Assembly (NCBI GenBank): GCA_036172245.1
Contig: JAYWIR010000047.1
Location: 186,001-250,000, forward strand
DNA: 64,000 nucleotides
Direction: 5' to 3'
Source: Raillietiella orientalis
Lineage: Eukaryota
Below the pieces are notes generated by a model. It was not told the origin of the DNA, did no database searches, and saw nothing but the letters and a program-made list of their open reading frames with translations. Below, piece after piece: positions 1-60,870 of the stretch. The number at the start of each line of letters is the position of its first letter. Positions within the stretch are counted from its first letter, which is position 1. Position numbers and translations under genes: made by a program.

Positions 1-232
1 TGGCGGCGTGCAGCGTCTTTACCGCTTGCCAGCCGTCGAGGAGTTGTTCTTCAGCACTGCTGTGGTGCAGGGAAGCTTCCATCCCGTAGCTAGCAACTGC
101 CGTTTGTACCTGCGCAGTGAGCGAACACGCTGCGGCAAGAGGTGAGGCTACTGGATGGGACTTGCAGCTCCAGTCCTTTAGGACGTCATTCAGAAGGCTG
201 AACGTGAGGGTTCTCAGGAGGCGAGGCTTTTC

Positions 233-425
233 CGGGGACGCAACTCCAGGTTGTCATCCCGAATCCCGACCGCCTTCCGCAACCAGACGTTTCGGTTCAC
301 TGGGGGGCAGTCGTCCTCCCTGAGCCTCAGCACTCCTTTCGATGGCCCCCGTCGGAGGCCGTGTGACTGCTGAGATTCCCACGCGTGGCACCACCTAGCG
401 TCGCGGGGAGTTCGGGCACTCGAGA
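233..425 (+). mobile_element. 5' fragment of the same SINE-like family
   Basis: GTCGGAGGCCGTGTGACTGC...CGCGTGGCACCACCTAGCGTCGCGGGG is nearly identical to 2259-2316. Confidence 0.65.
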
Positions 426-1344
426 AAGGGTGGAGGGCTCTCGAGAAGATGCCTCCCAACATTTCAAAAGGTGCGGAAGAATAGAGGGCGAGGGACAGGC
501 CACGATGGCTGCTGATCACAGAAGGGGGGAAGCAGAACAGTGGTCAGTCCGTTGAAGACGGGCGTCACACATGCGCACACATATGTACACATATCGCCTT
601 CTCGGCCTGTTGGCTAAGATCAAAGTGTACACATATACATGTGAAATTTAGTGTGTTGATCCGTGTTTCACTGTAGGCTGCCAAGAAAACAGAGATGCTG
701 AAAGTGCAAGATGAGATAAAGAGCCTTATCTCGGAAACATGGGGGCGCAATCTTCTGTTGAAGGATGGGAGGAGAGTGCTCGATGAGGGTTTCCTGCTCC
801 AAAGGGAACTCTGAAGGGAAGCTGCTGACCCGTCTGGATCAAGGTCTTGTTTCAGAGCTGCTGACAGCCTTATTGGCAGCACCTTCTCGGTCTCGTGTAC
901 GTCTGCAGCAAGGCGGCACTTGCTCTGTCGGCAAAAACGACGGAGAAGATTCGATGGAACGGAGGCGAATGCGACCCCGAATCCAGCGCTGGATGAACGT
1001 CCATCTCGCTCAGCAGAGGCTCTGGCGTGAAAAGAGGAGCCTCTGCCATTCAGTGATGCGGCGAAGAGCGAGAGAAGTGGGTTGCTCCCGTTTGGGGTGT
1101 GTCCTGTGGACGTTGGTGGGTGACTGCGTGCGGAAATGCGCGCGTGGCATTTTCGAGTCGGTAGGGAGGGAAGAAGGAGGAGTATGGTTACAGCAACGCT
1201 GCGATGGCAATGGTCGCGGAGCACAAACACTTCCAGGGCACTCAAAAAGCTGCTGCGAAGAGCTGGATGTTCCTGGCCGCCGGGGAGTGCGCGGACTCTC
1301 GTGTCTCGCTGGCCGAAACGGCAAGTAGCAGAAAGTTCGCAGCA

Positions 1345-4300
1345 TCACTGATTTCGGCTGCCGAAATCACTGATCTGGAGCAGCAGGAGCTCGATCTTTT
1401 TCTGGAGACGGTAAGGCGCGATCCTGACTTCCAGGTTCTCGAAATCCACGGCTTCGATTTCGTTCCTCCACACCTTGGCGCTCCCGTCGGCACGAGACAG
1501 CATCCTTTCGAAGAGGCTCGCAACTCCGCAGAACTCCCTGAAGGTCAGGCAACCTTCGCGTTCCAAGTCGGTCAGGGAGACGATTTCCTCGACGCAAGCG
1601 CCAGAGACCGATCTTCCCGCAATGCACGAAAGTGCCGTCCCCAGTCTCTGGAAAGATAGCGGGTCGCTTTTGCGCGCAGTACCGTTCATCCACCCCACCA
1701 CTCCGAGAAGCGCGGATGCAGTTGTTCTCAGCTGCCCCCAACCCAAGTCGTCTTTCCTGTTCCTTCACGTGAGACCGAAGCGGGGAATAGAGTTCGTCCG
1801 CTCCGGAGGCGCAGAAAGCGTGCCATTTTTACACGCATACGCGCTTAAATCCAAAAACGTCCTTCATCTCTACTTCCTTACACAGCTGGGAAGGAAGCCA
1901 AGTACTGCCGTCATCGACTTCGCGACCTCCTTGATCGGCCGACCCACGCCGGCCGAGACGATGCTTGCGGACCGCGCTACCTCCATGTCTTAACCCCAGG
2001 AAGTTTTCTGTTTGCTGTCGGTAAACAGCGCTGCGCTGTTCTTCTCACTAGAACGCGCCTGGTTCGTTCCTCCGACTACCAAACTCAGACACGGGGGACG
2101 TCCCGAAGAGGGTGGGAAGTTCCTTTTCTCGATCAGCTCCCGACGGCAGACGTGAGCCGGGGACCTCCGTTACCGACGGCGGTTGCGCGTGTACGCCAAG
2201 AACGCACGCTGTTCGCCAAGCTCGCTAGCGCGTCAGCGGACGGGTTCCTCCTGTCCGCGTCGGAGGCTGTGTGACTGCTCAGGTCTCCGCGCGTGGCACC
2301 ACCTAGCGTCGCGGGGGGTTCGAATACTCGGCAAGAATCGACACCGAGAGATGGGGGTGCGTCGCGGGTTCGAGTTCCTCCCGCAAGATGACGCTTGGCC
2401 TACATTCATTTGGGTGCCACGCCGGTAGTGGTTCAAACTGGATGCCCCGATGAGTGGCCGGGATTGGGAGTCGGCCTCCGAGTCCTTACCGGAATCAAGG
2501 AGTGGGGTTCCCTTCCGGTGGTGCAAAGGAGCAGAGCCCCTTGAGTGTGGGGAGCCCCTCCGGTTCGTTCAGATGGAGTAGGTGTGTAGCGACCTCTCCA
2601 GAGAGTGCCAAGAAGCGTGCCTCTCCCTTGGGGGGAGCGCCCTACAGAGAAAATTCGGAAGCGTCCCTTCGGGGTTCCCTTCAGAGGAGTAAACAGGAGC
2701 TGTTCCCTTGAAGATTCCCTCCGGAGAAAACAGCATGGAGCGGACCCCTTCGGGGGTCCTTCCGGAGAGAGTAAGGAAGAGGAGATTCCCTTCGGGGTTG
2801 GGAAACAACCAGGGATGAAGGTTTCCTTAGGGGATCCCCTCCCCAGGAGTGAGAGGCGAGCCCCTCCCGGGTACCACCCTATCTTGAAGAATTACACGTA
2901 CCCTCGGGTGGCGTGGAACAGTATCAAAGAGCTGCGTGGGCCGCCGTCAGGAACGCGACGGTTCTTGAGGTGCCCAGCAAACCAAAAAAAAAAAAGCTGA
3001 AAGGAACAGCGAAGACAGAAAGAACCCGAAAAGGTTTCCATCGTCCTTATGCGCTCCGTGATCTGGAAACAGTTGGTCACGTGACCTTTATGGTTCTTTC
3101 CCCCCTTCCCCGTTTTGCTAATTGGAACACCACCGGTTGTGCCGTCGAAATTTTTCCGCTTCGCCCTCGGTGCATCGGCGCCGTCGCGCGCTCCCGCAGC
3201 TGCACGGAGCCCGGCGCTACCCCTCCCTCCCCACGCCCTCCTGGTTGCCGCGGCGTCTCCCGAGAATCGCTAGTTGGAGTTTTCGCGTTTGTTCCCCGGT
3301 CGCCGCTCCACTCCTGCTCCACAAAGTCCCTCTGGAATACCCCCAGGGTGCTTTGCCGAGACGAAGACTCTTCCAAGAGGCCGCGAGGATCCTGCAAGGT
3401 CACCCCCGGAAATTGGTCGCACGGCAATTGGTCCAACCAGCCACGTGGCTGGAGAACGCTTGGAGGTAGCATCCTCCCGCGCGCTCCACATGCGTTGAGG
3501 TTGTATTCCCTTCGCAGGGACACGCGAACCTCTTCCCGACCTCCCTGACGGAGGGTCGATCTCGAGGCAGGGCTGGCATTTCGCCGCTTCCGACCTCGTG
3601 CCACTTCCCTGACTCCCCGTCTCGGGACAAATGCGAAGGTCACGTGCTTGGTTCCGTCAGGATGGCTTCCGGAGGTGGCGGCGGCGACTTCAGGAGGACC
3701 GAACGGAGGGAAACGCGATTTTCCCTGGAATTCTTCTTCCCGTAACGCTAGGGAGTTGTGGAACCTGCACCTGCGCGCTTTCGCTCCCAGCATCGAGCCG
3801 CACGTGCCTTTCCAGGGCAGCAGGAGCCCCCCACTTCAAGGGCGGCGTCACCTTGCGCCCACATTGGCTGGCGAAGGACTGGAGGTAGTATCAAGAGAGC
3901 AAATTGCGCTCCTGGTTGAGTCGAATGGGGGGAGGGGCGAGCCAGCTGGGTAGGCGCTCGCCCTTGCAGCTTTCCTGCCCATCCCCCAGTCCCGAGCCGA
4001 ATCCAGTCCTGCAGAGCTCTGAGCTTGGGGAAGGAGGAGGGGCGCCCACCCTCGGACGACATGTCCGGCAAGGTCACGGCCGTGTAGGATAATCGGCGAC
4101 GACACCTCTCTGAGCCAGTTCGCAGCCATTCTTGAGATTACCACGTCTTGCGGGAATTCCCCGGGGGCACCAACGAGCAGGCATCGCAGTCGTGCGCTGA
4201 AACGGGGACGCTTTCGACTCCGCCCGCTTCCGAAGAAAGAAACGCGCGGGTCCTCCATCCTGCGGTCTGCGTGCGACCGGGTCAGGGGAGGCAAAGGTGA

Positions 4301-7300
4301 CCGTGGAAGCTTGGCTCTTCCTTAAGGGTGTGTGCATATCCTCGAGGGAAGAAGAGCTCTCACCCTTCTCTCTACCAGAAGAGTAGGTGGTGCGCATTCA
4401 AGGAGGAGGCGCTGCAGATCCAGATGTCTCCTGACGGGCGTGGCTGCTGCCAACCTCAAGCATGATGACCTCCTCTGAGATCTCGCAGCTCCTGGAGGCG
4501 ACGGAAATGAGGATCGGACGCTCCAAGTCTTTCTTCCAGGTCTTCCAGGCTGGTGGCATCGCGGGTAAGGTGGGTGGGACCTTGGGAGCTGGGCGCGTTT
4601 GACCCGTAGGGAGGGGGAGTTGTAAGAAAAAGGGGAGAAAGAATGGTCAAGGCGACGGAGGTCAGGGAGATCGGATGGGTGACGGAAGTAGGATCGTTAG
4701 TAGGCAGTTCAGGTCATCTGTTGCGGAGAGGCTGATGCTGAGAGGGGCACGTGCTGCTCTTTCCGGAGGCATCGCTGGGATTCGAAGGAGGGTGGACGAG
4801 GAAGCAGAGGGGTAGGAATCGAACTAGAGGAGACTGAAGCTCAAGGGTGCTGAAGTGGGGGACCCAGCAACCTGCCGGTGCTGTCCGCGGCTCGAGGTGA
4901 GGGTGAGAGGGACAAAATTCGTGACACTAGGGGCCGCTTGGGACGGAGGAGTTCCTTTCGTGCCAAGCGATCCAGGGAAAAGCATCTCTCAAAGGAAGTG
5001 GTTTCGGGGACCTTTGCGAGAAGTGTTCACGGTTCTCTTAATTGGGAGGGGAGGAATAGGTGGGATCAGCAGCGACTGTAGGGCGCGGCGAAAGAAGAAA
5101 GAGGGAGAAGATTTTCAGGAGCCACTCTCAGTTGCCCGGGTTGCTCCGGGCAACGATGAAATGTCATCTCGAAGCGCATTTCCGAGTGTCTCTTCGCAGA
5201 TGCAAGGAACCCGCCAGTCCCGCGTATCTCATCCATGTCTGCAGGCACTCCAGAGAGTTCTTCCTCCTCTCGCGGGTTTCCGGCGGGACGTCCGTCTCCT
5301 CGATTTTCGACGGATGCGTTCCGACCATCGCGGCTATCTCCGCGCCCCACCTGCGGTTGGGTGCGCACGCCACCTGCGCCTATCATCTTGGAAATCGCAA
5401 GAATCTCGGGAGTTGCGCCAATTCTCCGGGGCACCTGGGCACACGGCTCTCCCACTGATGACACTCGGAGACAAGACCGTCCCGCATTTCCCGTTCTTTT
5501 CGAATTCGATGGTGGATGGTAGCCGCGAGCGCCAGGTGGCCTGGGAGACACGGTAGCCATTTCCTGGAAGTCTCCGGAACGAAATGAGTCTTGCCGGGTG
5601 GTTGGTTTCCTCGAGGCGATCCTTCATTCCTGGAGGCTTGCACTTGGGGCGCGCATCCTGCGCCATCATCTCAGGGCTCATGGCAACGCGCTCTTCCTTC
5701 CTTTTTTTCGGAAAGTCGCCCGCCGCCGCTGCGACGTAACCTTGCACGGCCGAGATCAGGGAGGCGACCTTTCGACTGATTGCGTTATCACACGCAGGAA
5801 ACACCCTCAGATAGTGAGTCGCTTGAGAGGTCGCCTGAGGCGTCTCAGGGTGAAGGTTCTTCCCCTGCCAGCGACCGGAAAAGCGTCCTCTCCGGAGGAG
5901 CAGCGCGCTCCTGACACTCCAGAGAGGCAATCTCGGAGAGCGGGGTATCAAGCAGCCCAGGGTGCTGTTCCATTTTCACAGCCGGAGCGAATCCCGAAAG
6001 GCTCTTGATTCCCGGACTCCGGAAGGTCCACTTCCAATCCTGACCAGTCGACGGGGGCATCCGGCTTCCGCTAGTGCCGCATGTGGGCCAGCCAGCGTCA
6101 TCTTTTAGGGGGGGGGAAGGACTCGAAACCCACGCGATGCACCTCCATCCATTTTCGGCGTCCATTCTCCTTGTGGGGGTTCGAAAACGCGACGCGCGGA
6201 AGCCGCAGCCTCCCGGCCGCCAACGCAGGTAGGTCGCACCGCAGCTCATCTTCCGGGGCCATGGACCACCATGATCTCATTTCTGCCTCGAGACGAACGT
6301 GATCCGCTGCCCACGAAGCTCCCGCTCAACGATCGATCCGCCGCGCTTCTCCCCCTACCCCGGGTCCGTCCGATTCCGCCGCTGGGGCGGCGCGGCTCCT
6401 GTCTGCCTCTTTCCCGCTGACGTCCCGAGTCCGTTCCTCGCGAGGCGCCCGCGAGCGCCCAGCCGTCCCGCAGAAATGCCGATCGCCGTGTTCTTTCGCA
6501 GCGGCGGCTGCCCCTCTTCTTCATCCTCCCTTCCCCAACACCTCGAGGAGCGACTCAAAGGGCGAGGGCCCGGGACCCCGGAGGCTTCGCTGCCTCTTCC
6601 GCATCTCGCCTAGTGCTTTTGTGTCACCGCGCATCCTCCTTACTGGAAGTCCCCCCCCACCCACTCCTATTGCGGGCTCGGATGACCCGTTCCGGGAGTG
6701 ACAGGGGGACGCCGCGATGTGGCGCGTTCCAAGAAAAACAGGAAGAGGAAAAACCTCCGGCGAACGAGAGGAATCCTGCGCTGGAGAGTGGGCGGGGGCG
6801 GAAGGCACCCCGGAAGGGGGACCGGTGAAGCGTGCTCACGAGGAGGACCCCGGACGTTCAGAAGAACACCTGGGCTACGTGGTTCGTTGACGCGGCACGG
6901 CCCAACAAATTCCCTGCACGAGCAGCAGCAGCACCCACCGTAGCATGGCGCGCATCGCAAGTTCAGGAGGCGCGCGGCACGGGAAAAATCCTTCTGCCGT
7001 TCCTCCAGTCCCTGCACCAGGACGGTCTGGGTCCGACTTCCGGATGATACGGAGAGGGCTGTCCAGAAGCATCGGGAGCTGATTGCGGGAGAACAGATCC
7101 TAAGCTGGGAACATCAAGCGCTCCATGGAGACGAAGGAGCCATCTTGTCGAGCGTCGCTCTCCCCACGTATCGTTTCGATCGTGGTTCGAGAGGTGGCAG
7201 GGCAGTGCAGAGGGATCGAGGGCCGAGGTCATGCCTCGCGAGAGGGCGAGGCACGTCACCCCTCCCCTCTACATGAGCCAGCGCAGTGAGAGGTGTCGGC

Positions 7301-13300: not shown

Positions 13301-16300
13301 CAAGACCCGTTTTGGTAAGCGCAGAGACCTGAAGGTCACTCACTGCATGAGTATTGACTCACCAAGTGATGTGTCACCTGCGTAATGGCAGGATCAGTCA
13401 GAGCTTGGAGCTTGTATGCTCTTTCTGGTGAATGGTGAGTCTTCTCCCTTTTCCCCTTAAGAACCTTCTTGTTCTGCTTGTGAAACGTGCGAGGACCACG
13501 GTGCTTCTTTTCCGAGAAGAACCCAATCGGTTGGTAGCGGGAGCGTGTCTGAGAAGATGAACAGATTTTAGTCTTCAAATCAATGGGCATTTCTCCTGAA
13601 TGTTTTCGCATCAGTCCGTGGAGATTTCCCGGCATCATCTGCTTCCTGGACCTCTTTCCTGCTAGCATTTCGAAATATCAAACATCAAATTCAGTCTGCA
13701 TACAGAACAACCCGAATTTTCAGATGAGATCAGTCTAATCTAAGAACAAAATGATTCGAATAGATTCGGGGCAAAAGTTGTTTTGCAGCGAGAAGTGGGC
13801 AAACTGTGACGAGGGAATGGACCCATTTATGGCTCCATACCAGCATGCGGTTCGGAGGAGTAGGAAATCGGTGCCAACGCCACTATCCTGAAGATTTCCA
13901 AAGGGTAAGCAGAAGAAAAAAAAAAGCCGTCCGTGGAAGCAGATCTTGAAAAAAACGGAAACACTTCTCAAAAGACTTCATTCTTTGATTTTCCCAGTTG
14001 ATGCCTGGGGATCAACTAGAAAGGAAACGCGAAAATTGCAGAACCAGGGGTGAGCTAGAACGGTCGTGCTCCTTGCAAATCTCTCGCATCTTTGGTACAA
14101 GGTATCTCGAAATTCCTTCACCTCCAGACCCTTTGGGGGCAATCCTGGAAAACGAAAAAGGTTCATTCATCCTTCGTACTGGTTCCTCTTGCAAAAGAAT
14201 GACTGACCAGTGGTCCCTTTTAATTTTCAGGTATTCCGTTTCTTTCTCTTTCCTACTTTGAAAATTTCTGTTCCGAAAAAACACACATAAAAAAAACAAA
14301 AACAAATATCACTTGCAGCCCAAGCTCGAGAGAGCACAGTCCGCGACCTCAGAATTGCTTTTGAGGAGGAGGCATTTGCATTTGACATTGGCGGTCTTTC
14401 TGATTACAGCACAACCATAAGCACGAGGAAACAGATTTGTGCTGTGGTGGAGCCGGATCGAACGTTCCACCGGTCGAACGTCAGGGGAAATAGCTGGATA
14501 AGAAAACATTCGATCCGAGAAGCATCTTTGCATTCAGTCTGGGGACCAGGGATGTGATAAGTGAGTCCGATGAAGAGGAAAGCTTTCCAGAGAGGAGTTT
14601 TTTTCGAAAACCAATTTGCGTTCGATGCAGTGAGCGAACCGAAATTGATAAGAAAACGCTGATGACGACCATTATCGCGAGTTGCACGCTATTCTTCTTC
14701 TGCTGGACCATGTCCACAATACTTTGGAAAAAACAAAACAAAACAATAGGCTGATGATTTTAATCACAATAGTTTGGATTCTCGTCTCTCCTTCCCCAGT
14801 TTTCTTCTTAGTTGTTCGAACCTTCTATAAGGGAAAAGAAGGGTTTTTTACAAGAGGAGCAGTACAGTAAATCCCCAGCTCGAGGTAGGCTGAGACGGGC
14901 CGTCGTGTCTTCCGTGTAACGAATCTCGATTCTTTGTCTTGACAGCCTCCGGAAGCAGCATCCGGTCCAAGAATGAACAAGAATTCATGTTGGCGCCCTT
15001 CAGATCTGCACCTTGCGATTTAAATCTTTTAATGTTTTGGATTGCTACTCAATGCTTCGATCTAAATGAAGGTGGAAGACGGAGAAAGAGTCGTGGCTAA
15101 AGTCCAGCCTCCATTTTTTGAAAGGATCGTAGCTTTTACTTGTATGCGGAGGCGTGTTGAGTGGCTGAGTGTATGATGTGTATTCACGGAAATAGGTTTG
15201 GAAAGGTGTACGTATACACCTGTTTTTCAGGAACACTGCTTAATTCCATCAATGAGCTCCTGCTACTGGAATCCTTTAGCCATTTCCAAGGTGGCATGCA
15301 GACACCGAGCAACTTGATCCTCCTTTTCCAGCAGCCTCTAAACGGTGCCTTGGATGCAATGCAATCCCAGAAGCAGAGAGCCGCTTTCAAGCACTTTCTT
15401 GGAAGATGGGGTCGTTCGGTCTAAAGATTGCCCCTTCGGACTCGGCTGCTTGTGAATTCTGTTCTTGAGTCCCTGCTCTCAGGGATACTTTGGAAGTTAC
15501 GGCAAGTTCGAGAGGAGATGGGCGGCTGAAAATCAGCTCTGAAGATTCTCTTAGGGTCCTCAATCTTCCCGGATAGGAGCTTCCCAAGACTCTTTGGCTC
15601 GGATAATGCAAAAGCGCGAGAGGTTCCTTTCAAGTCAGTCGGCAATGAAAAGCATGAAAAAGGAAAACAACAACAACGCATCTTCAGGTCTTCCAGCGTC
15701 CGAGCAGCCCAAAGCTGCAAGCACCGAAATCCCAACGTCATTGCTACAGCGCACTTGATTCTCGTTTCGAAAGCACATCGTTTCATTTCTTCGGCCCTTC
15801 CTTCCTTTGTGGTTCGACTTTCTTTTCACGAAGAGAAAGAATCCTCTTTCGACGGAATCGACGAAATCAGATTGATCGCCACCGTTTCCTCCAGTCCGCA
15901 AGCAGTCGTAGAGGAATTCGCCGCTCACTCGTCTGAAGAAGGGGGATCCAGGCACACGAGAATGAAGGAGGTCCCCGAAATCAGAAATCTGATTCGGCCC
16001 AAACCTAAGTCAGGACAGTAAAGCGAAAGGGATTGATCGTTCCTTGGCGATCGGAGTGGCATTCCGAATTCTGAAGAATCCTGCATCTTCCATGATCCCC
16101 TCTCTCGATTTTCGCGGACGGGTGATTTTGACACTTGGATGCGTCTGCACCTGCTGGATGCCTTGCAGCTGCGGTCTCTGCGCGTGGAACCAAGAGTTGC
16201 GGGTTCGAATCCCGCCCGGAGGAAAGGACGGACGTCGAGAAATGGGTGCGTCGTGGGTTTCGAGTCGCGTCATCCTGTCGCACAGGATGACGCTGGTTGG

Positions 16301-17802
16301 CCTATTTGGGTGCGGCACTGGTGAACTCCGGAAAATACCCGGATGCCCCTGTTGACTCTCTGGGATTGCAAGTGAACCCTCCGGGGTCCTTCCATTTGCT
16401 AGAATGGAGCCGTTACGATAGATCTGTTCGTTGTCCTTCTCGGGGGTTCCCTCTCCAGATTGTCTGAATCGAACTGCTTTCTCCGTGGAGTGCCCTTCAG
16501 AGAAATATGAAAGGATCTCTTCGGGGTTCTCTTCGGAGGATTTAACAAGGAGAGGTTCCCTTGCGGGTTCCCTCCGGAGCAAGGGTTCCAGGAGCACATC
16601 CTTTTTGGTTTCCCTTAGGATAAGAAACGGAGAGTGTCCCCACCTTCGGGATTTCCTCGCAAGAGAACAAGGAAGAGGTGGTTCCCCTCCCGAGAGCAAG
16701 AGAGGAACAGACTTCTTCTTCCAGAGCCTTCTTGGATTCATAGAGTGGTCCCCCGTTGAGATACTCCCTAACTTGAAGAGTCCTACGAGCCCTCGGGATG
16801 GCGCGGACAGGCTGAAGGAGCTTCGTGAGTCATCCTCACAGGGAAGCGAACGGCTCCTCAGCACCCTTCGGAGACCAAAAAGACAAAAAAGATCTGCAAG
16901 GCGCATGAACCGGAGGGATTCTGGATCAGGTGTGACGGAAGAATGGGCCGGTTCAAAGGCAGGCGAACCCTGAGATGGATCCCATGGTAGCAGTGCTGCA
17001 GCTCGCCTTCGCGATGAGGAGAACGCACTCTCTCATATCTACCTGGTTGCAGTCGAATACGGTTATCTTGATTTCCTCGCGAGCGTGGATGGGGGATCGG
17101 CAGCTCGGCAGATCATCCACGCAGCCGTCGTCCTCCGCCATTCTGCTGGGAACGGGCTCGGCGTCTGTCGCCGACGGTAAGCTGAGAACGATGGGCTTCC
17201 TGGGTCTTTCGCCGACGTCCCGCTTGCGGTCAGCAGCCCCGCTGGATGCAGCAGGGGAGCCGCCATCTCTCGAATCGTGGAACGGAAGCTGGCAGAAGAG
17301 ATACCTCTTGTGCGCTTCGAGGGAGCCGCCTGGGTCCCGTCTTTCGCGGCTCTGAGTGAATTCGACCTCTGGAACCGCGTCCAGCCTCACCAGACACCTC
17401 TCCTCGTTCGGAAAAGATGCGGTCTTAGGGTGGTTACAAAGGTCGGAACAGGCGCGGCCGTAAGGCTTGAGTTGCACTCTTCGCACTCTTGGCGGGGAAA
17501 CGACGAAGCCTTGGAACCTCAGGGCATCCTGCGGAAGAAAGAAGTGGTGGTTCAACCCGTGCGACCGCCGCAAGCAAGACGACTTGCTTGCATCGGCTGC
17601 TGCAGAGAGGAGGCAGCTCACCTGCCGCCATTCTGTATTTCTCTCGCAGCAGAGCCATTCTGAGCCTCTCCAGGAAACAAAAGCAAAAAGACGCACGGAA
17701 GAAAGATGCAAGAAAAATCGATCGAGAGGAAGAAGGGATGCGGAGCGTGAGATGTGAGTCTGTGAGATGACGAACCTGCAGGACAACCGTTCTCCTACGC
17801 AT
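1345..17802 (-). CDS. Spliced conserved-looking uncharacterised protein (~493 aa) with degenerate EF-hand-like C-terminus; first exon uncertain
   Basis: Manually assembled exons, all GT-AG and phase-consistent: 17802-17776 (tentative MRRRTVVLQ), 17528-17043, 13548-13378, 13328-13161, 9794-9590, 8724-8603, 1647-1345 (stop). Joined protein reads ...WMELPRNYTTLATRFELPMNLELLR|SMTPLEYLKRY...SSLPLW|RLGTALSCIAG...DLEREGCLTFREFCGVASLFERML...EIEAVDFENL. I recall this motif pattern from an uncharacterised metazoan family (unverified). Confidence 0.8.
2094..2997 (+). mobile_element. Second long copy of the same SINE-like family
   Basis: Two B-box-like GGTTCGA motifs (~2317, ~2367), same body as 16287-16390, tandem CCCTTCGGGGTTCCCT units 2625-2850, shared CCCTATCTTGAAGAA...CCCTCGGG segment, and an A-run at 2984-2996. 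Confidence 0.7.
5140..5373 (-). pseudogene. Decayed death-domain-like coding fragment inside the last intron of the minus-strand gene
   Basis: WGAEIAAMVGTHPSKIEE...RKNSLECLQTWMRYAG...L resembles the death-domain helix pattern (W..LA..LG....I..I.....L..W....G); frameshifted, no flanking exons found. Confidence 0.35.
5880..6450 (-). mobile_element. Inverted partial copy of the same SINE-like family
   Basis: Reverse complement contains TGACGCTGGCTGGCC...TGCGGCACT...CCGGATGCCCC...GGATTGGAAGTGGACCTTCCGG, colinear with 16287-16390 and 2388-2500. Confidence 0.65.
8123..8187. repeat. 21-bp inverted repeat (long hairpin)
   Basis: GAGCCACTTAAAACCGGCCCT and AGGGCCGGTTTCAAGTGGCTC, 1 mismatch, 23-nt spacer. 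Confidence 0.85.
14640..14830 (+). pseudogene. Possible class A GPCR TM6-TM7 remnant
   Basis: KKTLMTTIIASCTLFFFCWTMSTIL followed by a frameshifted LMILITIVWILVSPSPVFFLVVRTF. Confidence 0.3.
15931..16890 (+). mobile_element. Interspersed SINE/retrozyme-like repeat, best-preserved copy
   Basis: Hammerhead-like core 15933-15995; perfect tRNA T-arm GCGGG-TTCGAAT-CCCGC at 16199-16215; shared body TGACGCTGG...GGATGCCCC...GGATTG; ~40-nt degenerate tandem units; A-rich end at about 16876-16890. Confidence 0.7.
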
Positions 17803-20522
17803 TCCGTGTGACCTGAAGCATCTGGATGATCTACTTCTGAACTTAAAAGCGTGAACCGAAATTCGGGACGCGCAGTACGCAGGATCGTTCGGCTGGGCTT
17901 AACGTTAGACAACAACGCAGTACGCGAAACAACACGCGTTGTGCTCATATGGGATCCCTGTGCCGCCGAATGAGCAGCACAAAGACCGTAAGAAACCAAT
18001 CGAATGACAGCATTGACAGAGCTGAAGGACTGTGCTATGTATTCATAGAGGAAGCCCCACTGACAGATGGTGTCTACATGTGGAGACACTTGCATCGCGT
18101 AAACTGTATGTGTCATCGACGGTCCACACTTGTCAGTGGCTCAAGCTGGGCATTCAGGTTCCCTTGTCCCGTTATGTTCGGAATTTTCTCTGTCATCTCC
18201 TCACTGAATTTTCCCGTTTCATTTTTTCCTTCTCTTTAGTCAAGCAGTTTACACTTCCATAGGTGTACTCTTGGCTACGCGTCTCCACAATGCGGCAACG
18301 CTTAGATGCCATTTATTCGTTTTACTGGGGCAAGTTGTTTACGATGATAAATGGTGCTTTACTCTAGATTTCAGATCGATGCTGAAAATCTGTGACATCA
18401 CGTGATTCTCTAAACGTTCAGAGGTCTCGGAAGCATGGTGTCCTGAAACGTAATCCTGGAAAATGATCCGAAAGCCAAGATTTCATGCTTCCCCATTCCT
18501 GGATTTTCCTTCGAATCCTTCCTCAGAGAAGTGGTCCTAGATTTCGAACCAAGGAGATATTCCAGAATTCCGCATCAGCTTATTGATTGTAGCACGGCTT
18601 TTAGAGCACCTTGTGCCAGAGAAAGTTACTAAGCCAGGTATTATCTTCGTTAAGTATTGGATCCTTGGAAGCTCCGTTACGCTCCAGGTGTCGGAATTTT
18701 CTGAAAACCTCGATCGGAATCTGAATGATTACATTTCCAATGTCCTCCTCGATCTACATCCGTGGATATCCGTTCGGATTTGTGATCAGTCAGCCCTTTT
18801 GGTTCTTTTTTTTGTGTGTGTGTCCCAAGTCGAAGAGCGAAAACAATCGTTGCCCGGTTACACCTCCAAGTAGTAACTTTTGGTTGCTGAATGCTCCTCC
18901 GCTTTTTTCTGTTGCTCCTGTCAAGCATACTCGTACGCCTTTGGAACAGTTCCCAAGACATTCGGCTTTGGAAGGGTTCTTAGCTAAATTTCTGCCTCTC
19001 GTCATGCAAACATGCAAAAAAGGCTGCCGGTTCGTGTCTTAGTCATCTCTGGACTGATAGTCCTTCACCATCAGGCTTCTTGGTTTCGTCTTTTTCCTGT
19101 TGATCAGAACGCGCCTTCGTTTGTCTTGTCTCGAACCTTGTGGAGTCACTCTGCTTTCTATTGCACCCATGTACGGTTCCTTATCGCGTACTCAGTTCTC
19201 TGCAAATTTCTCCCTTGTTCACAACAAGCCCACCAAAACTGCTCTCTAGCTGGAAATTCCCGAGTTCTAAGCATCTTGGGCACGCCCAATCAATCTATTC
19301 GGATCCTCAGCATAACACCTCTGTATGCTCAACCACTATACCAACCGTACCCCAATCGCTTTACAGAGTTGCGCTGAAATCCCAACATTCCGCCAACCCT
19401 CTCTTTCCCTTTTCAACTAATGGTCCCAAGAATCCTTGCCAAACTTGCCGTTTGGCTCAAGCTGCTCAGCTAACCTTAGAATGATGCTCGGTGTTTTCCA
19501 AGTAGTGGGTGAAGAGTACATGAAAGTACTGGTAAGTTGAGCAAAGGATCGCTGATGTCAAGAACGAAAAATTTCTTCTGCCTCAACTCTCAGATTATTT
19601 TCTGATGGAAGGTCTTTTTGGAATGGGAGTGTTGTTTGAGAATGTTACTCTATAATCTTCTGCAGAGGAACAATGCATTCTATGACCGTTTGATTAGGGA
19701 GCTCTGTGAAAGGCACCTTGAAACTTTCACGAGTTCATGACATCAACCAGACAACCGAGACTGTCACTTTCGTTATCTGTGCTCAAAAGAGAAAGGAACC
19801 TTGGAATTCATCGTGATTTCTGAGGGAGACAGGCAGAACAAGAAGAGTAATTCAAGGCATGTTCGAATGTATCCCTTGGAAGATCACTTGCATTTCTTCC
19901 AAATGCACCAAGCAACAGTCCCTGCGCTTTTCATACCCTTTTTTCCTCCTCGGTGGATAAAATTTTTTGCGAGTTGCTTTGACGAACGACGAGCGTCCTT
20001 TGAAAACCTGCGAGTGCAATACACGCGCCCATAGGAATGGACCATCAGTCCCTTCTGTGGCATTAAATAGATTTCTATAATCTCCGATCACCCTACGCAG
20101 CTACGGAAGCTCGCGCTGCGAAGCTCATTCCCGCAGTGGAATTGGGATTGGAAACGTGGGATTTGAGAATTTAGATCTTGCGAAGGTCGAAAGCAGTGCC
20201 ATTCCGCAGCGGGAGATGCTGCGTTTGTTCAAACAGCTCTGAAGTAGTCCGCAACGGGGAATATCTCTAGTAGATTGCAAAAAAGCTCGACCCCCAAGCT
20301 TCTACGGTTCCCTCTTTGTGATAGAAGACTCTCTAATGCAGCCATGGCTTAACGAACAGACATGTCGAGGGCACGGCGGACGCGTCTACTCGCAATAGAA
20401 TTTCGCTTTCTTCATTCAACACCCAAGGCGGAAACACCACCGTGCTTCCCACAACTGGCATATGCAATTCCTTGTGTGTTCGATGATTTGCGGCTGGGAA
20501 AAGAACACGGCAGTGTTCACAT

Positions 20523-21586: not shown

Positions 21587-21630
21587 GAATGGCATTGTGT
21601 ATTAGAGAATGGCATTGTGTATTAGAGAAT
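21587..21630 (+). repeat. Perfect 20-bp tandem duplication
   Basis: GAATGGCATTGTGTATTAGA x2 plus GAAT. Confidence 0.9.
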
Positions 21631-24600: not shown

Positions 24601-25289
24601 CGTTTCAAAATAAGGAAATTTTTTCGTTTTACCTTTTTTTGCAGAGCGATGTGCCTCCTGTAATTGGGTTTGACACACAGAAGACCAGTGCTCGTGAATT
24701 CGCTCATAAGAAGGATCCGCTGCAAACATTCAGTACAGATGAAAACATCCCGAACGTTTGATCGATGCATCTTCATCCAGCATGCTGTCCTTCCAGTCGT
24801 GCGCGACCTTTCAGCAAGTGTCCTCTCACACAGCCAGTTTTCCTCAGACGTCTCTTCTGATCGTGTGTTTGATTGCTTTTGGCTGGAGCGTATACCGCCA
24901 ACTCTTTCCGAAAGTGGGATGAGGCACTCTCCAAATAAAAGTACCTGCAGCACAAGAATCAACCACGATGATAAATCGTGCGAACAAGGAATTTTCGTAT
25001 CCCGGTTGCCACTTTTCCTGCATTGAATGAAGTGCTCGGTAGAAGGAGAAGGAAAAAAAAACAAGGCGTCCGATTCAGCGAGTGGTAGATGAAATCAGCG
25101 TGACTTTGAATTAGGAAATTCTGGGAAATGACCTCAAGGTCGAGGAGGGAAACATTGAGGCGATTTGATTCTTTTGAGGAAAACTTTCCAACTAAATGCT
25201 CTCGACCTCACATTCGTTTTCTGATTTGTTTTCAAATGAATTCCACAAAATAATCACAAAATCCCGGAAGCGGAGATCACCTCCTCAGG

Positions 25290-25372
25290 CGTGAGAGGAA
25301 CGGACTCCGAGTCCTTCCTGGGTTCATAGGGCGGACCTTTCCCGGGGTACCCCCTATCTTGAGGAATTACCC
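25290..25372 (+). mobile_element. 3' fragment of the same SINE-like family
   Basis: GAGTCCTTCCTGGGTTCATAGGG...GGGTACCCCCTATCTTGAGGAATTAC matches 2850-2895 and 16725-16780. Confidence 0.5.
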
Positions 25373-35179: not shown

Positions 35180-38100
35180 ATGTCGAATTCTAATATTGCT
35201 GTGGACTTCAAAAACTTATTACAGAATACAAAAGATGCTACAGCTGTAAGGTAATTGTTTGTTTATTCATCACTGAATGATTTCATTTTTGAATCAAGCA
35301 TTAAGCCCAAACAATAAATTTAAATTTATCCATGATGAGTTTTCAATTTTTTTAATTTTTTGTTTTAGCATCTCCTGTTCAGATGCCATGAAAGGCCCAA
35401 GATTGAGTCATTTTGGGAAGAACATTATCCGTAAAGGTGGAAATAATAATAAATTGATTGAAGATACTCCTCGTAGTCCAAGTCCCACAGAATATTTAGA
35501 ATCCCAACCAAGTTTATCGCAAGTCAGTTTGTCAGAATTTCTGTTGTGCAATGGATTCCTGAGTTTCCAGATTGAAGAAGAAATTTTATTATGCAAAAAT
35601 TTATTTGAACAGAGCATTAATAATTTAAAGAAACTTCTAAACAGAAAGGTTTCATATGTGATAAAGGGTGAAGAAGATATGTTATTGAAACCATGTGTCT
35701 TCTTAACTGAAAAGCATAATAAAATTAGTGATTTATCATCTGAGCCTAAAATCATTCCTTTAGAAAGGTCAGTAGGAAGAAGTGGAGTTATCGGAAAGCT
35801 TAATTCAAATAGCCCAACAGTTATTCAAGAAAGTGATCTAATTTCTGATGACGATTTTGAGAACACTGGATTAAATTCAGAATATCAAGTAACATTACCC
35901 AATGAAAGTAGACATCTCCGTGACACAGAAAAGTCGGATATTGATGATGGCTTTCTAGCTTTGACTAAACCTCCCCTTTCAGAAACGGATTTGGTTAGTT
36001 TAATTTCTGATGAAACAGATTCTAATCAGAAAGACAGAATTGAGAATTCTCTTTTATCAGAAGAAGAAAATTCAGGCTTTGGAAACGTTTATGATGAAAT
36101 GAATGCAAAATATGATTCACGAAAAACAAGTGGCATAAGAAGTGTTCCAAGAATTCCTTCTTGGAAGAAAATCGCTTTAAAGAATTGTGCAGAAGACGAT
36201 AAAGATCCAAAAGTAACGAATTCAGATTCTCTTGAGAGTAGAAAACTACTTGCATTGAAACAGCAAGAACGAAAGATGCGAGTAAAAATGTTGCGTTCTA
36301 AGTTCATGAAGGAAATTAGTTCTGTTAACAAGTTAGGAACTCCTTTGGGTACTGGATTTTTGAAACAAGCAGAAATGCTTACATCACGAAACACAAAAGA
36401 TGATGGAGATGATTCTGAGCAAGGTGAATTACGTGATGGTTGCAATTTAGAAGCCCGACAAGAAGTTTTAGAATTAAGTAATGACATTGATAATGTAGAA
36501 CGAAGCACAGAAAATAATGTTACTAAGCCACAGTTACGTGAAAAATCGAGAGGAAACAAAAAATCTCTAGCACTTGATAAACATGCATCTTCCAATAAAA
36601 GTATTGAATCTAGTGAGAAATTGAATTTAAAAGCAGCAATAAAAAAAGTAAATGGAAAGAGTTTAATTCGTTCTGTTGCAAAAAAGACAGCACAGCCGCT
36701 CCAGATTGGTTTCGTAAAAAACAATCCAAGTCTTGCATCACAGAGCAGAAAAATAGGTGCTCTGATCCCATCACGTGAAACCTACCGAAACATATTTTCC
36801 AATTCAGAAAACATGAAGGCATTTAAAATTCCCAAAAAGATGCAAGCAACCAAAGAAGCAAAGAAGCAAACTATCTTAGTGGTAGCAGATAGTCAGCAAC
36901 TTGAGTCTAATGATGAAGTCAGTAAAAAAGTGGTATCCAAAAAAAATTCGACTCCTAAGCTAAGAACAGGCAAGCGTAAAAGATCATTAGTGCTGGAGAG
37001 AAAAACAGGCAAAAGATTAAAAACTGCAGTTAAAGAGAAAAAGAAAGATCAATTCAATACCAGTGCTAAAGAGGAAAAGATGGATTTATCTTTAAGTCAG
37101 AGTGGAGAAGGTATATGTAGTCTTTGTGGCTTGTGTTGCAAAAAATTGGTTCATCATTATGCAATATTCCATCATGGATCAGAACCTCCAGTTACAATAC
37201 CTGTTGAAGATCTTTACGGGGCATTGCTTGAATTGGAGAAACTTCACGATGCTCCAAAAGAAAATTTGTCTCTTGTTTCAAAAACAGTTTCATTACCTGA
37301 TAAACTAGATTGCAAATTCTGCACCACAAGCCCCCTAGAGCCTGTGATATACGTACAACATATAAGTGTGCACCGACCTGAGGGAGGATGTCAAACATAT
37401 TGCTGCCGTATATGTTTGTGGAGTTCCAATTCCTTACAAAATTTTGTAGACCATGTAACATCACATACTGGAGAATATAGGTATTCTTGTGAGTACTGTG
37501 GCTATAAAGGATGCTCGGCAGCTGATGTAGAAAGCCATATCACTGTTAGTCATCAGGAGCAGAATTATAGCATTCAGGCTGAACCTATGGATACTGCAAG
37601 AGATGTTAACATATTTGTGTGCAGCTATTGTTTATTTTTCCAATTATCTCAGGCTACTGTTCAGAACCATTTGGCTAAGCATGCAAATGCACATCTTCTT
37701 AAAGTTAATGTTTCCTATCCATCATTTCCACCATCAGCATCAGCATACAATGTAAACCATGTATCAATGGAGTATGAATCAAATGAAATAGAAGCAACTA
37801 TTGAAGACATGAAATTTGATCCAGCAGTGTTTGTAGGTTCTGAGGAATATGATGTCATTCTGAATCCAAATGAGATTCCAATAGAAAGCAGATGTCACAT
37901 GCAGCCACAAGAAACTTTTACATCTTCAAGAAATCTGTCAACAGTATTGGCTAAACTTTCTGAAAAGCTGTCTCCTATTATAGAAAATCCTATTCTGAAT
38001 AAAGATAATATAAATACACCATTGTCTTCCAATATTGAAGCAGATGAAAGCTATTCAGGTAAAAATTATTTGACGGCTCGTATTTGTGGGTCTGAGATTT

Positions 38101-41100
38101 TCTTGTTCCAATTGTTTGTGTTAGAAATTTAACTCTATGCCAATATTTTATAATGAGTAGGATATGAATAATACATTTTCTGATTTGATGATGTCTTGGC
38201 TACTAAACCATTATTCTCATTTTAGAGTCTCTTCAGAATGAAATATTTCCAATTAAAATCGAAACAGTCACAAGCCTTACTGCACAGGTGAAACTTGTTA
38301 TCATCGAGCATTCATTGCATAAAAATACTATTTTAGGATTCTGCAACAAATACATCTTTAGAGCTCGAAAATGAGAACACGTTGCCAGGTCCATTGCTTG
38401 AAGAAGAAAAAGATCAGCAGGCAGTGACGTCTTCAACAAATTTTGGTAAAGAACATATTTTTTTATCAGGTGTTTATTATGTAATGTTTAAGCATACGAT
38501 GGAGATGGCTTGGCATTATCAGCAATGAAGCAGAAGTTAGGATACCATAAAATACTGGAACAGCTCAAAGTGCCTTCTGTTTTATCAAATATGCTTGCTG
38601 TTGATAAATTAAAGCATTTATTCAAGTGTATGCAAAAAGACTGCAGTTTCACAACTGATGCACAATGTTTATTTTTGGGCCACATTAAAGAAAAGCAGTT
38701 TATTGATTCACATTCTTTGATTTGTTGCTACTGTCTGTATTGGTGTTGCAATTCCGAGAGTTTGGTCCAACACGTCAAGGAAACTCATCAGAGGTCATGT
38801 TATCAGTGCCCTTATTGTTTTTATAGAGCAGTAGAGGAATTTTATGTATTAGAACATCAGGTAATTTTTCCTGTTCGTTCTTTTACCTGTGGATCATATT
38901 GTTTAGCATCAATTTCATACGGATGAAGACTCCACAATTATTTTTGGTATTGACAGTGCAGTATCATGTGAAGATCCTCCTACTGATTTATCCTTCTTGA
39001 AACCTTTTACATGTTGCGTTGGTAAGAATTCTTATCTAGTTATATGTTTTCCGTGAAATTGGTGTTTGGATCATGAGTGAACTGGGATAATCGAACTTTT
39101 CAATGCTGCCAAGTTTCCGGTTTTGACATCTTGCATTCCTAATGAAAAATGTATAAGTTTTATAGTAAGGGAAAGCATTTCTGAAATTAAAGTGAAATCT
39201 TTCTATCTAAATGACGTTTGCATTCTATAGGGAAGATAATGTGTAATTCTTTTTTCAGTCTGCCTATGCTTTTCTTAGCATAAACAAAACGTTTGTGTAA
39301 TGTTTTGCCAACTTGTTGCATAGATAATTTACAGTTAGCCTGTGTTGTCTTCCTTAAAATGAGTAAATAAATTTAAATTTTCTTTGGAAAGTTGAATGTG
39401 CAATGTATTTCTGTGTTAAAATTTCCCAAATTTTCTTGGATTTTGTTTGTTGTCCATGGAATAATTAGTTGTATGTGCTTATCGAGATGTTGGTACTGAT
39501 CACATATTTCCCTGAAATGTTCTTTCAATAGGCATGTAATGATAATAGCAATATATCAGTAATAATGATCATAATAATTGTAATAAGTGAATTGTGTTCA
39601 CGTGTTGCGTTTGAAGTTTCTGCTGTTATACAGATGAAAGGAGTCAAAAATCGTCATTCTTCTTTTAAATAATAATTAAATAATAAGTGTAAATAGAGTT
39701 TAGCAGATTTAATTAGTAATAAATTAATGGAAACGTTACTATAACTTCATGGTGAAGACATATGCAAACATTGACAGGAGAGCAACAGGAATATTAGAAC
39801 ATTGTATGGAAAAAATATTAGAGTAAGGATGAAGCTTTAAAAAAATGAAAAACATGAAAATGTTTAAAAAAAAAAAAAAGTAAACAAAAGGATGCTTACT
39901 AGTAACAATAATTTGCTGTACACGATCTTGGAGTTTTTGATTAACAGTATTAGCATACTAGCAGTAATTTAAGCTGGTATTCTATTATTTTGTAATATAT
40001 TTGCTTAGTAAGGTTCATTATCTCCAGTTCAAAGAAGACAATAAATCCTTTCTGTTCTTGAAAAACCCTCTTTTTGTTAATGTTGTTCGTGATTATTTCA
40101 GAGTCATTCTTAGTGTGCTTCTCATTGATTCATGTTTTTCAAATTTGTGCTTTCAAAATCTTGTAAAAATTTTAATGTCATTGTTTCATTTGCATTATTT
40201 TGTGGAACCTTTTTTGGGTTTGTTTGCAAAGATTATTATGAACTCGTCATAATCATTTGAAATTTCCAATGGAATAACAAATGTATGTCGTGTCTTCATT
40301 TTTGTTTTAGTGGTAATAGATGCTGATTATAATATAGCAGTTATTCAGAATTTGAAAATGAGTGCATTTCATTTAGTATTGATTGTTTTTGAAAGAATCA
40401 TATAATTGGTTAACTTTCCCATTATGCATTGATTCAGTACTCATACCTGCCCCCTACGTATTCAAACATGTTAAAGATTGAAGTGTTTACATTATCTAAT
40501 GCTCTCCATTTTTATCAGTAGGAAAGTTTTGCCAGTTAACCATGGTTCTTAATGAGTATTTTTGCACTTGTACATATTGAGCACTTCAGAGAAAGACTAA
40601 AATATTTCGATAAATTCAAATAATTTGGAATGAATCTCGATACAAAACTTCTAATAGTTCTTGCAAAATATTGATTGAGGTTTTTGTATTAAAAGAAGTC
40701 ATTATCATTTGAGAAAGACATTAGCCCAATTTTTTTGTAGCATGGCAGATTTTTTTTAAGCATACATCCATGCTACAAAGAAATTTGGCATCTGTTATTA
40801 TAATAATTTGGCTAATTGCTTTGCACAGTTTCTTTGTAACAAGTGTTGTTAGGTAACGCACTTAATACAAATTCATGATTTTTGTCGTAAATTAATTAAT
40901 ATCCACAAATGTAAACGCTCAAGAAAATTAGGAAAAATTCATGCAGTAGTGGTCATGTTTTAAAATGATTTTATTTGGAAATGAAAAGTTCATATTTTAC
41001 TTACAGCAGAGATGTGAAAGGTACATAAGACTCATTTTGATGTTTCCGTTGTAATGATAATTTTCGATTACTCACGAGATTTTTATTTTTTGCAGCTTCT

Positions 41101-47100: not shown

Positions 47101-47535
47101 ATACGCACTTTGATGAAGCAGATTCGATGCGAAGTCGTGACTCAGAACGAAGAGGAAGTAAATGATCTCAGTAAGAATGGAGAAACCAGGAAAAATGATC
47201 TTGCTGCCAATGTAACCCATCAGGAGAACCCGGGCGTGTGTGAGTTGGAGAAGAGGGTCGGCTCGCAGGACAAGCCGCGGGCCGTCGGCCATGCAAAAGA
47301 GTACGCAAATGTGTCGAAATTGAATTGTAGAAGTGTCGCTAAAAAGTCTACCACGTGTTTGCCTTCTGCTGTACCTGTTCATCGGAGATCTCGATATTCG
47401 GAAAGGAGTTTTGACGATTTAAGCGTGTACGTAATGTTAAATAATGCATTTTGTAAGATATCTGTTGGAGAACTTGCTCAAATGATGAATATTTATCCTA
47501 CTGTCCGTTTGCAGAAAATGATTTTTTCCCAATAA
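35180..47535 (+). CDS. Large multi-C2H2 zinc-finger protein (~2,390 aa), probable chromatin/HP1-associated factor
   Basis: Exons: 35180-35250, 35369-35522, 35571-38058, 38226-38287, 38337-38445, 38493-38860, 38907-39021, 41096-41229, 41276-41431, 41484-43105, 43166-43295, 45028-45136, 45875-47535; GT-AG and phase-consistent. The 48-nt intron 35523-35570 is in frame and tentative; the start codon is also tentative. Many CxxC-x12-HxxxxH fingers (e.g. CRICLWSSNSLQNFVDHVTSHTGEYRYSCEYC). AATAAA at 47540-47545. Confidence 0.9.
46831..46857 (+). repeat. (GCA)8GCC coding microsatellite, poly-Ala9 in the zinc-finger protein
   Basis: Direct sequence within the last exon. Confidence 0.9.

Positions 47536-58594: not shown

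Positions 58595-60870
<2,276 letters not shown>

Follow-up and report, generated by a model that had tools for sequence, protein, structure and literature searches.

The question raised by this locus is whether a set of related sequences in a 64-kb window (the whole stretch of DNA analysed here) represents an old Pol III retroelement that also carried a self-cleaving hammerhead ribozyme, as an earlier note on this DNA had proposed. In its fullest form the proposal is of a self-cleaving retrozyme/SINE hybrid of ~0.96 kb, starting at position 15931 with a type I hammerhead.

The repeat family itself is real. In a sensitive whole-window self-comparison it supplied the only significant dispersed repeats of the window (all five matches), and a BlastN search with 15701-17100 against the window matched 16168-16901 to 2277-3004 (60.2% over 779 columns, E-value 8e-26), 16196-16389 to 6193-6014 on the opposite strand (67.2%, E-value 1e-14), and 16671-16779 to 25266-25365 (66.4%, E-value 1e-5). 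A fifth copy is represented by 347-422, which is 86% identical to 2255-2330. These comparisons bear out the claim in the earlier note that related copies exist, but over narrower spans than it gave: 347-~470 rather than 233-425, 2255-2995 rather than 2094-2997, and 5960-6229 rather than 5880-6450. The copies (Table 1) are dispersed on both strands, c6k being inverted, and form two or more subgroups by sequence, with 86% identity between c2k and c0.3k versus ~60–67% to c16k and c6k. All five lie within the first 26 kb of the window, with none in 26–64 kb, and three of them lack the 3' end; no significant 3' domain was found in c6k. The collections searched contained no copies from outside the window, but these were prokaryote-centred or protein collections and their silence says little.

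Table 1. Positions in the 64-kb window of the repeat copies and of features in and beside them
Feature	Position	Strand	Remarks
c16k, full-length copy	16150-16892	+	743 nt including tail; script 16150-16896 = 747 nt; GC 0.55
c2k, second full-length copy	2255-2995	+	741 nt; script 2253-2997 = 745 nt; GC 0.60
c0.3k, 5' fragment	347-~470	+	347-422 86% identical to c2k; match past 422 weak
c6k, 5' portion, inverted	5960-6229	-	weak protein-level match extends to 5863
c25k, internal ~100-nt fragment of 3' domain	25266-25365	+	BlastN E-value 1e-5
Hammerhead-like motif in c16k 5' flank	15933-15995	+	not part of family; read as nested palindrome
Possible left target-site duplication, TCTGCA (tentative)	16144-16149	+	
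tRNA-sized 5' head	16150-16223	+	acceptor-like ends, T-arm 16199-16215, B box 16202-16212
Second, degenerate B-box-like motif	16255-16267	+	duplicate of first; in 3/3 copies covering the site
Perfect 12-bp hairpin, c16k only	16267-16293	+	local inverted duplication of conserved block; other copies keep 3' arm only
Best-conserved body blocks	16286-16368	+	GATGACGCT ... GGATGCCCC ... GGATTG
Degenerate ~41-nt periodic array	16444-16700	+	about 5–6 units
3' domain	16740-16876	+	common to c16k and c2k, in part c25k
A-rich tail, c16k	16877-16892	+	A5 GAC A6 GA; aligned with A12 tail of c2k
Possible right target-site duplication, TCTGCA (tentative)	16893-16898	+	directly after tail
A12 tail, c2k	2984-2995	+	

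The limits of the element could be placed from the copies themselves. All four copies that reach the 5' boundary share it as a sharp edge (16150, 2255, 347, and 6229 on the minus strand), with mean pairwise identity of 69% across the first 45 columns inside it and 39% across 43 columns upstream. The 5' end of c16k was taken from this four-copy alignment and its 3' end was set at the A-rich tail, where the similarity to c2k ceases; the A-rich end that had been described is thus present in both full-length copies, at the same alignment position. These two copies are nearly equal in size (747 and 745 nt as measured; ~745 nt each), which replaces the ~0.9 kb suggested originally. The longest copy had been thought to begin at 15931; however, the ~220-nt 5' flank 15931-16149, which holds CTGAAGA...GAAA, had no BlastN match to any other copy, and local alignments of the 5' flanks scored 13, 12.5, and 10, where shuffles averaged 11.2, 10.6, and 11.7 and peaked at 16, 15.5, and 15.5, so this stretch is not common to the family. 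A 6-bp direct repeat, TCTGCA, adjoins both ends of c16k and may be a target-site duplication, a reading weakened because the repeat falls inside an 18-nt local tandem duplication (16136-16172). None was detectable around c2k, and at such divergence most would be expected to have eroded.

These boundaries bear on two readings in which the family is not a retroposon of this kind. The copies might not be mobile at all, being scattered remnants of a local segmental duplication in a GC-rich, gene-poor block; their confinement to the first 26 kb, the reduction of three of the five to 3'-truncated fragments, and the lack of matches in the (little-informative) outside collections would all be in keeping with this. 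We consider it improbable, as the flanks are unrelated on either side of both full-length copies, both of these copies stop exactly at the A-rich tail, one copy is inverted, and at least two sequence subgroups are present. A solo LTR would suit the ~745-bp length and the 6-bp direct repeat flanking c16k, but neither full-length copy has terminal inverted repeats (no inverted pair joins the ends), TG...CA termini are absent by eye, the element ending in an A-run, and the window holds no direct-repeat pair around an internal region. We therefore consider both a solo LTR and a remnant of a MITE-like DNA transposon very unlikely.

The ribozyme half of the proposal depends on a motif at 15933-15995, ~215 nt upstream of 16150 and hence in the flank that is not common to the family. 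CUGANGA and GAAA boxes occur there in the right order (15933-15939 and 15977-15980), near c16k only; none of the other four copies has a CTGANGA on the element strand, within it or nearby, and across the window the box shows no enrichment (51 matches vs 42 ± 6). The motif consists of CUGAAGA, a 5-bp G/C stem II, GAAA, a 5-bp stem III with a tetraloop, and U-U. Stem II requires one extra unpaired base after A9, since otherwise 10.1/11.1 would be A.C, and by eye stem III is a 5-bp hairpin (15980-15993) with loop AAAU followed by U, for which scripts gave a longer-range alternative pairing to 16037. Under the type I layout a script gave stem I lengths of 1, 2, and 3 bp for the three partial cores of the window (at most 2 bp in the core at 15933), and inspection by eye revealed no stem I hairpin at 15933 that would suit a type III layout. 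Rfam found no hammerhead at the gathering score in the window, nor at an E-value of 10 or less in 15500-17300, 1-3300, 5950-6350, or 16100-16320. In the minimum-energy fold CUGAA is paired with UCAGA, which makes a nested palindrome and not a three-way junction, and the stability of this fold was equalled or bettered by 69 of 200 shuffles (z -0.36).

Partial hammerhead-like arrangements are nevertheless commoner than in the shuffle and decoy nulls. A descriptor scan found three partial cores in the window vs 0.15 ± 0.38 in 100 block shuffles; decoy motif pairs, scanned for in the actual sequence, averaged 0.23, with none of 150 reaching three. The core at 15933 is the best formed of the three, the other two (14751 and 53108) having G.U/A.T-rich stems around ~60-nt loops. 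This excess, together with the core boxes and stems II and III, is what speaks for the hybrid; set against it are the missing stem I, the lack of an Rfam match, the palindromic fold, the position of the motif outside the repeat, and its absence from the other copies. The organization of the family also differs from that of metazoan non-LTR retrozymes, which one published account (PMC7229834) describes as tandem 150–450-bp units, each with a type I hammerhead and with GC below 45–50%, expressed as 170–400-nt circular RNAs. The family resembles these in being non-autonomous and non-coding in an animal genome, but it is dispersed and not tandem, ~745 nt long, and 55–60% GC, and it has no validated ribozyme; it does not qualify as a retrozyme. 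We conclude that the motif is a piece of flanking sequence, not a ribozyme, and that a self-cleaving hybrid starting at 15931 is extremely improbable. It is highly improbable, too, that the motif is the eroded relic of a once-active ribozyme in a longer 5' module lost from the other copies, which would make the family a self-cleaving, tRNA-related retroposon of the Sm-alpha type, three times longer and with an internal 41-nt array. The sole observation leaning toward such a relic is the excess of partial cores (three observed, 0.15–0.23 expected).

The tRNA-like features, by comparison, are inside the repeat. The perfect T-arm of the earlier note (GCGGG/TTCGAAT/CCCGC) is present at 16199-16215, and the sole exact B-box match of the window (GGTTCGANNCC) lies at 16202-16212, that is, at +53 to +63 from the boundary at 16150; in tRNA genes the B box lies at about positions 52–62. 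Although degenerate in the other copies, the box is kept at the same column, with a one-mismatch version at the homologous place in c2k. The second, degenerate T-arm box that had been proposed is also genuine, and it duplicates the first: in c2k the same 10-mer stands ahead of both boxes, 53 nt apart, and the second box recurs in c6k. Beyond the T-arm the resemblance fades. ARAGORN predicted no tRNAs at default settings, and a relaxed call (85% threshold) at 16151-16223 is at chance level, the window giving nine such calls vs 4–16 in 20 shuffles. The Rfam tRNA model had no match at an E-value of 10 or less even in a 221-nt search (16100-16320), with nothing beyond partial matches the size of a T-arm, and we saw no convincing A box in the head by eye. 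In favour of the SINE-like reading, Pol III terminators are few, with no run of four or more T in c2k and one in c16k. The element is possibly tRNA-derived, with tRNA ancestry past the T-arm unsupported.

Downstream of the boxes, a pattern of 27 specified bases drawn from the conserved body blocks matched exactly three places in the window, all of them family copies, and had no matches in 100 shuffles. The tandem array, described earlier as having 40-nt units, is better put at 41 nt and is weak and degenerate: lag-41 autocorrelation was 0.395 (16490-16720) and 0.45 (2620-2800) vs 95th percentiles of shuffle maxima of 0.364 and 0.393, and repeat units are spaced 40–41 and 79–81 nt apart, so the periodicity stands, but TRF did not detect the array even at a score of 30.

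The family is non-coding. Pfam matched none of 139 ORFs of at least 90 residues in 1–34 kb (E-value of 0.001 or less), no mobile-element domains were found in the 56 ORFs scanned in 34–64 kb (E-value of 1e-4 or less), protein-level similarity between copies is weak and changes frame, and a long antisense ORF had no protein homologues. There is no reverse-transcriptase or endonuclease domain in the window, and no partner LINE in it. The lack of such domains tells against the most serious competing explanation, that the copies arose by retroposition of a Pol II transcript (as retrocopies of a long non-coding RNA) or derive from a LINE and are non-autonomous (copies of its untranslated part), the B-box-like hairpin being incidental. 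That explanation would account for a length of ~745 nt, which is long for Pol III, for the missing A box and unrecognised cloverleaf, and for the internal 41-nt array, which resembles composite elements such as SVA; an A-rich tail and possible target-site duplication would suit any LINE-mobilised RNA. However, the 5' end is sharp and the B box lies as far from it as is canonical for a tRNA; all copies retain the box, and in duplicate. The shared 5' end of all four copies is also unlike 5'-truncated LINE tails, and is better explained by full-length transcripts made from an internal promoter than by LINEs truncated at random 5' positions. On balance we consider a Pol II or LINE origin rather unlikely.

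The family is probably an ancient, inactive, non-autonomous, non-coding, A-tailed retroposon family of ~745 nt that is SINE-like. Its anatomy runs from the tRNA-sized head with B box and T-arm through the duplicate box, a GC-rich body with the 41-nt array, and the 3' domain to the A-rich tail. An internal promoter in the head would have driven transcription, a poly(A)-dependent LINE may then have supplied the reverse transcriptase that recognised the A-rich 3' end, and target-primed reverse transcription would have inserted the copies, leaving short target-site duplications. What survives of the earlier proposal is accordingly, in outline, an interspersed element that is old, non-coding, and A-tailed and has a tRNA-like Pol III B box; the hammerhead/retrozyme half of the proposal does not survive. 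Several observations run against the SINE-like reading: no tRNA can be recognised in the head, a Pol III SINE of ~745 nt would be a long one, only one of the two full-length copies has a possible target-site duplication (6 bp), and only five copies were seen, all within 26 kb of one window that holds no partner LINE. Later deletions must also be assumed for three of the five copies, because target-primed reverse transcription does not yield 3' truncation.

Among known systems, tRNA-derived SINEs have a type 2 Pol III promoter, are A-tailed and LINE-mobilised, and usually reach high copy number at about 100–600 nt, so that a ~745-nt family is at or above their usual size range. The family is like them in that it is non-coding, its copies occur on both strands and begin at one sharp 5' edge, a B box/T-arm stands at about +53 to +63, the 3' tail is A-rich, and a short target-site duplication may be present; it is unlike them in that ARAGORN and Rfam do not recognise the head, no A box is clear, and there is an internal 41-nt array. 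Its duplicated tRNA-like segment recalls dimeric SINEs. The hominid-specific SVA-type composite retroposons combine a SINE part, a VNTR, and an A tail. The family has a similar plan, in that its head is related to a small RNA gene, tandem repeats lie inside it, and it ends in an A tail, but its array is short and degenerate (about 5–9 units of 41 nt), and we claim no sequence relation. The schistosome Sm-alpha and Sj-alpha elements, the model for the earlier note, are SINE-like and tRNA-related; a published description (PMC2770079) reports thousands detected as tRNA genes or pseudogenes by tRNAscan-SE, with the ribozyme found using the Rfam hammerhead motif. The family here matches neither a tRNA nor a hammerhead model, and its hammerhead-like motif is outside the repeat.

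Because that motif fails as a ribozyme and is no part of the repeat, the finding is an ordinary one, of little importance beyond repeat annotation. A new self-cleaving retroelement is unsupported, and the locus is therefore not to be carried forward as a ribozyme candidate. As the only detectable interspersed repeat in the window, the family adds to its GC-rich, gene-poor first 26 kb. Should it turn out to be abundant genome-wide, masking would benefit from a proper consensus, and the family could serve as a phylogenetic marker in the host animal lineage.

The dispersed related copies described in the earlier note were borne out both by blastn within the window and by self-comparison, and all of our results on this repeat family are drawn from the 64-kb window itself. 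When the region 15701-17100 was searched against the window by blastn there were three significant matches: 16168-16901 aligned with 2277-3004 (60.2% over 779 columns, E-value 8e-26), 16196-16389 aligned in inverted orientation with 6193-6014 (67.2%, E-value 1e-14), and 16671-16779 aligned with 25266-25365 (66.4%, E-value 1e-5). The copy near the start of the window, c0.3k, matches the copy near 2 kb, with 86% identity between 347-422 and 2255-2330. When the entire window was compared with itself at high sensitivity, five matches were returned, all five inside the repeat family, and a conserved-block pattern with 27 specified bases matched the three copies spanning those blocks and nothing else, with 0 matches in 100 shuffles. 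The copies are very diverged, which makes the family an old one. Metagenome scans with the 27-base gapped family pattern and with a 24-mer common to two copies each found 0 loci.

Two copies are full length, c16k and c2k, which by script measure 747 and 745 nt, their spans there being slightly wider than 16150-16892 and 2255-2995; the other three are partial (see table). When the four copies extending into the 5' region were aligned, the 5' boundary was sharp, at 16150, 2255, 347 and 6229 (the last on the minus strand), with a mean pairwise identity of 69% over the 45 columns just inside the boundary versus 39% over the 43 columns upstream, the latter presumably being about the level expected from forced alignment of unrelated DNA. 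Local alignments confined to the upstream flanks scored 13, 12.5, and 10, where the shuffle reference had means of 11.2, 10.6, and 11.7 and maxima of 16, 15.5, and 15.5. At the other end, the similarity between c16k and c2k stops at an A-rich run (16877-16892 in c16k, and a run of 12 A at 2984-2995 in c2k). We rejected the idea that the 6-kb copy also has a 3' domain and tail, because the alignment scores (11, 10.5, and 10.5) were no better than those of shuffles (maxima 15.5, 19.5, and 15). We found no terminal inverted repeats in the element. The 6-bp direct repeat TCTGCA adjoins both ends of c16k, and c2k has no comparable flanking direct repeat; the c16k repeat lies inside an 18-nt local tandem duplication (16136-16172, two copies, 84% matches), which straddles the 5' boundary of c16k and complicates the reading of TCTGCA.

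Partial copies and head of the repeat family, and other annotated features of the window
Feature	Position	Strand	Remarks
Head of c16k, tRNA-sized	first ~74 nt of c16k		contains perfect T-arm 16199-16215
c0.3k, 5' piece	347-~470	+	
c6k, 5' portion	5960-6229	-	
c25k, internal piece	25266-25365	+	100 nt
Large intron-less ORFs (three)	35277-38132, 41484-43109, 45709-47535	+	weak C2H2 zinc-finger matches
6-phosphogluconolactonase-like and MYND-finger exons	56921-57571, 61670-62894	-	flanking BiP
BiP/HSPA5 gene	about 58.6-60.9 kb	+	protein ending in KDEL

The perfect T-arm that had been noticed from the sequence alone is indeed present in the head, together with an exact B-box match (16202-16212) that is the only one in the window and that lies at +53 to +63 from the independently determined 5' end. 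Genes for tRNAs carry their B box at that same distance from the 5' end, and this positional argument, resting on the canonical spacing between the box and a sharp 5' end, is the main one for a tRNA derivation of the head, which is plausible. ARAGORN with default settings found no tRNAs, and its call at 16151-16223 with an 85% threshold was rejected as being at chance, since that setting gave nine calls in the real window and between 4 and 16 in the 20 shuffled ones. The Rfam tRNA model had no match at E≤10, even in a 221-nt search, giving only partial matches of T-arm size, and no A box was seen by eye in the head. The segment preceding the T-arm may resemble a class II tRNA variable arm. A second box (16255-16267) is present in all three copies covering that region and duplicates the first; in c2k both boxes are preceded by an identical 10-mer, at a spacing of 53 nt. 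Among the copies, only c16k has a perfect 12-bp hairpin at 16267-16293. The 40-nt array of the earlier note was borne out as a weak periodicity: TRF found nothing, even at score 30, so autocorrelation was required, and this detected a degenerate 41-nt periodicity in the element body, with lag-41 values of 0.395 and 0.45, where the shuffle maxima had 95th percentiles of 0.364 and 0.393. The array units are spaced 40-41 and 79-81 nt.

The same note had read CTGAAGA...GAAA at the start of the longest copy as a hammerhead-like core, and the family as a retrozyme/SINE hybrid. At 15933-15995 there is indeed a motif of CUGAAGA, a 5-bp G/C stem, GAAA, a tetraloop hairpin of 5 bp, and U-U; however, it has no stem I and no Rfam match and lies outside the shared unit, and the hammerhead/retrozyme reading is not supported. 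A descriptor scan found three partial hammerhead-like cores in the window, compared to 0.15 ± 0.38 in block shuffles and a mean of 0.23 when decoy pairs of motifs were scanned for in the real sequence, where 0 of 150 reached three. Three cores where 0.15-0.23 would be expected from decoys and shuffles count against pure chance. The hammerhead fold depends on stem I, for which the script, in a type I layout, found at most 3 bp (1, 2, and 3 bp among the three cores), and no stem I hairpin in a type III layout was seen by eye at 15933. Stem II of the 15933 core requires an extra unpaired base after A9. For this core the scan reported only a longer-range pairing to 16037 and not the stem III hairpin seen by eye, because among variants it retains the one whose stem I is longest. 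Rfam hammerhead models gave no match at E≤10 in any of the four regions searched. The minimum-energy fold of the 15933 core is a nested palindrome in which CUGAA pairs with UCAGA, and its stability is no greater than that of shuffled sequence (z = -0.36; 69 of 200 shuffles at least as stable). The core is 215 nt outside the shared unit, the CTGANGA box is found on the sense strand of none of the other four copies, and the box is not enriched in the window (51 matches versus 42 ± 6). The other two partial cores, at 14751-14849 and 53108-53194, have the core box, GAAA, and weak stems rich in A.T and G.U, with long loops of ~60 nt and no stem I.

Metazoan non-LTR retrozymes are defined by tandem 150-450-bp units of low GC that each carry a type I hammerhead (PMC7229834), and the repeat family has none of these three defining features. 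Sm-alpha elements (PMC2770079) are picked up en masse by tRNAscan-SE and the Rfam hammerhead motif, whereas our family is recognized by neither kind of tool.

The repeat family has no coding capacity. None of the 139 ORFs of at least 90 aa in 1-34 kb matched Pfam at E≤0.001, and none of 56 scanned ORFs in 34-64 kb matched mobile-element domains at E≤1e-4, the BiP C-terminal ORF having been omitted from the latter scan because it was already scanned separately. Protein-level similarity between copies is weak, with a changing frame. Two unusually long stop-free frames on the minus strand, antisense to and downstream of c16k (16013-17032 and 16956-18140; 340 and 395 codons), were rejected as coding as they had no Pfam match. 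The 340-aa ORF was further weakened as a gene by its lack of homologs (0 among 8000 candidate proteins of 187-595 aa) and by not being preserved in c2k. Its single match among protein representatives, P0001, is a repeat protein of 1990 aa with a bacterial Ig domain as its best Pfam match; it aligns only to residues 15-45, encoded by the 3' flank (16897-16987), and was rejected as chance or low-complexity similarity. Both long frames probably reflect base composition and not genes.

Base composition in the window is uneven, with 57-64% GC in 1-10 kb versus 31-36% in 30-44 kb. Long ORFs are numerous in both orientations across the first 34 kb, which is GC-rich, yet these are the ORFs without Pfam matches, and self-comparison found no repeat there besides the family studied. 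A perfect tandem repeat of a 20-nt unit (2.2 copies) lies at 21587-21630. At 593-630, ~120 nt downstream of c0.3k, there is a near-perfect copy of about the first 36 nt of U2 snRNA (Rfam alignment 593-787; E-value 0.0023; 29.6 bits, where the gathering score is 46). Low-complexity sequence rich in CA/TA flanks the copy, the remaining U2 is absent or unrecognizable, and the copy is probably a fragment of a truncated U2 pseudogene.

The window is animal DNA. Introns 1 and 2 of the BiP gene are about 45-50 nt (by eye from the ORF table), and its best listed homologs are 79-83% identical, 83% being the maximum among the 120 listed, which included no near-identical entry; the named ones are mostly from arthropods. 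Pfam NAD-GH matches at 58772-59068 and 60109-60504 are antisense to the HSP70 coding sequence, which we take to be the known antisense artefact. The 6-phosphogluconolactonase-like exons match Glucosamine_iso (E-value 7.5e-35), and the MYND-finger exons match zf-MYND (E-value 3e-10) and are SET/MYND-like by eye. The zinc-finger ORFs encode, in order, 951, 541, and 608 aa; the third matched a ZNF462-type seventh finger (E-value 2e-8), and a protein-atlas look-up of the first gave only generic C2H2 clusters.

The repeat is best explained as an ancient and dead family of non-autonomous, A-tailed retroposons of ~745 nt, SINE-like and possibly of tRNA origin, with the B-box segment in duplicate and a short array inside. 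Its anatomy suggests that the element would have been transcribed by Pol III and mobilized by a poly(A)-dependent LINE.
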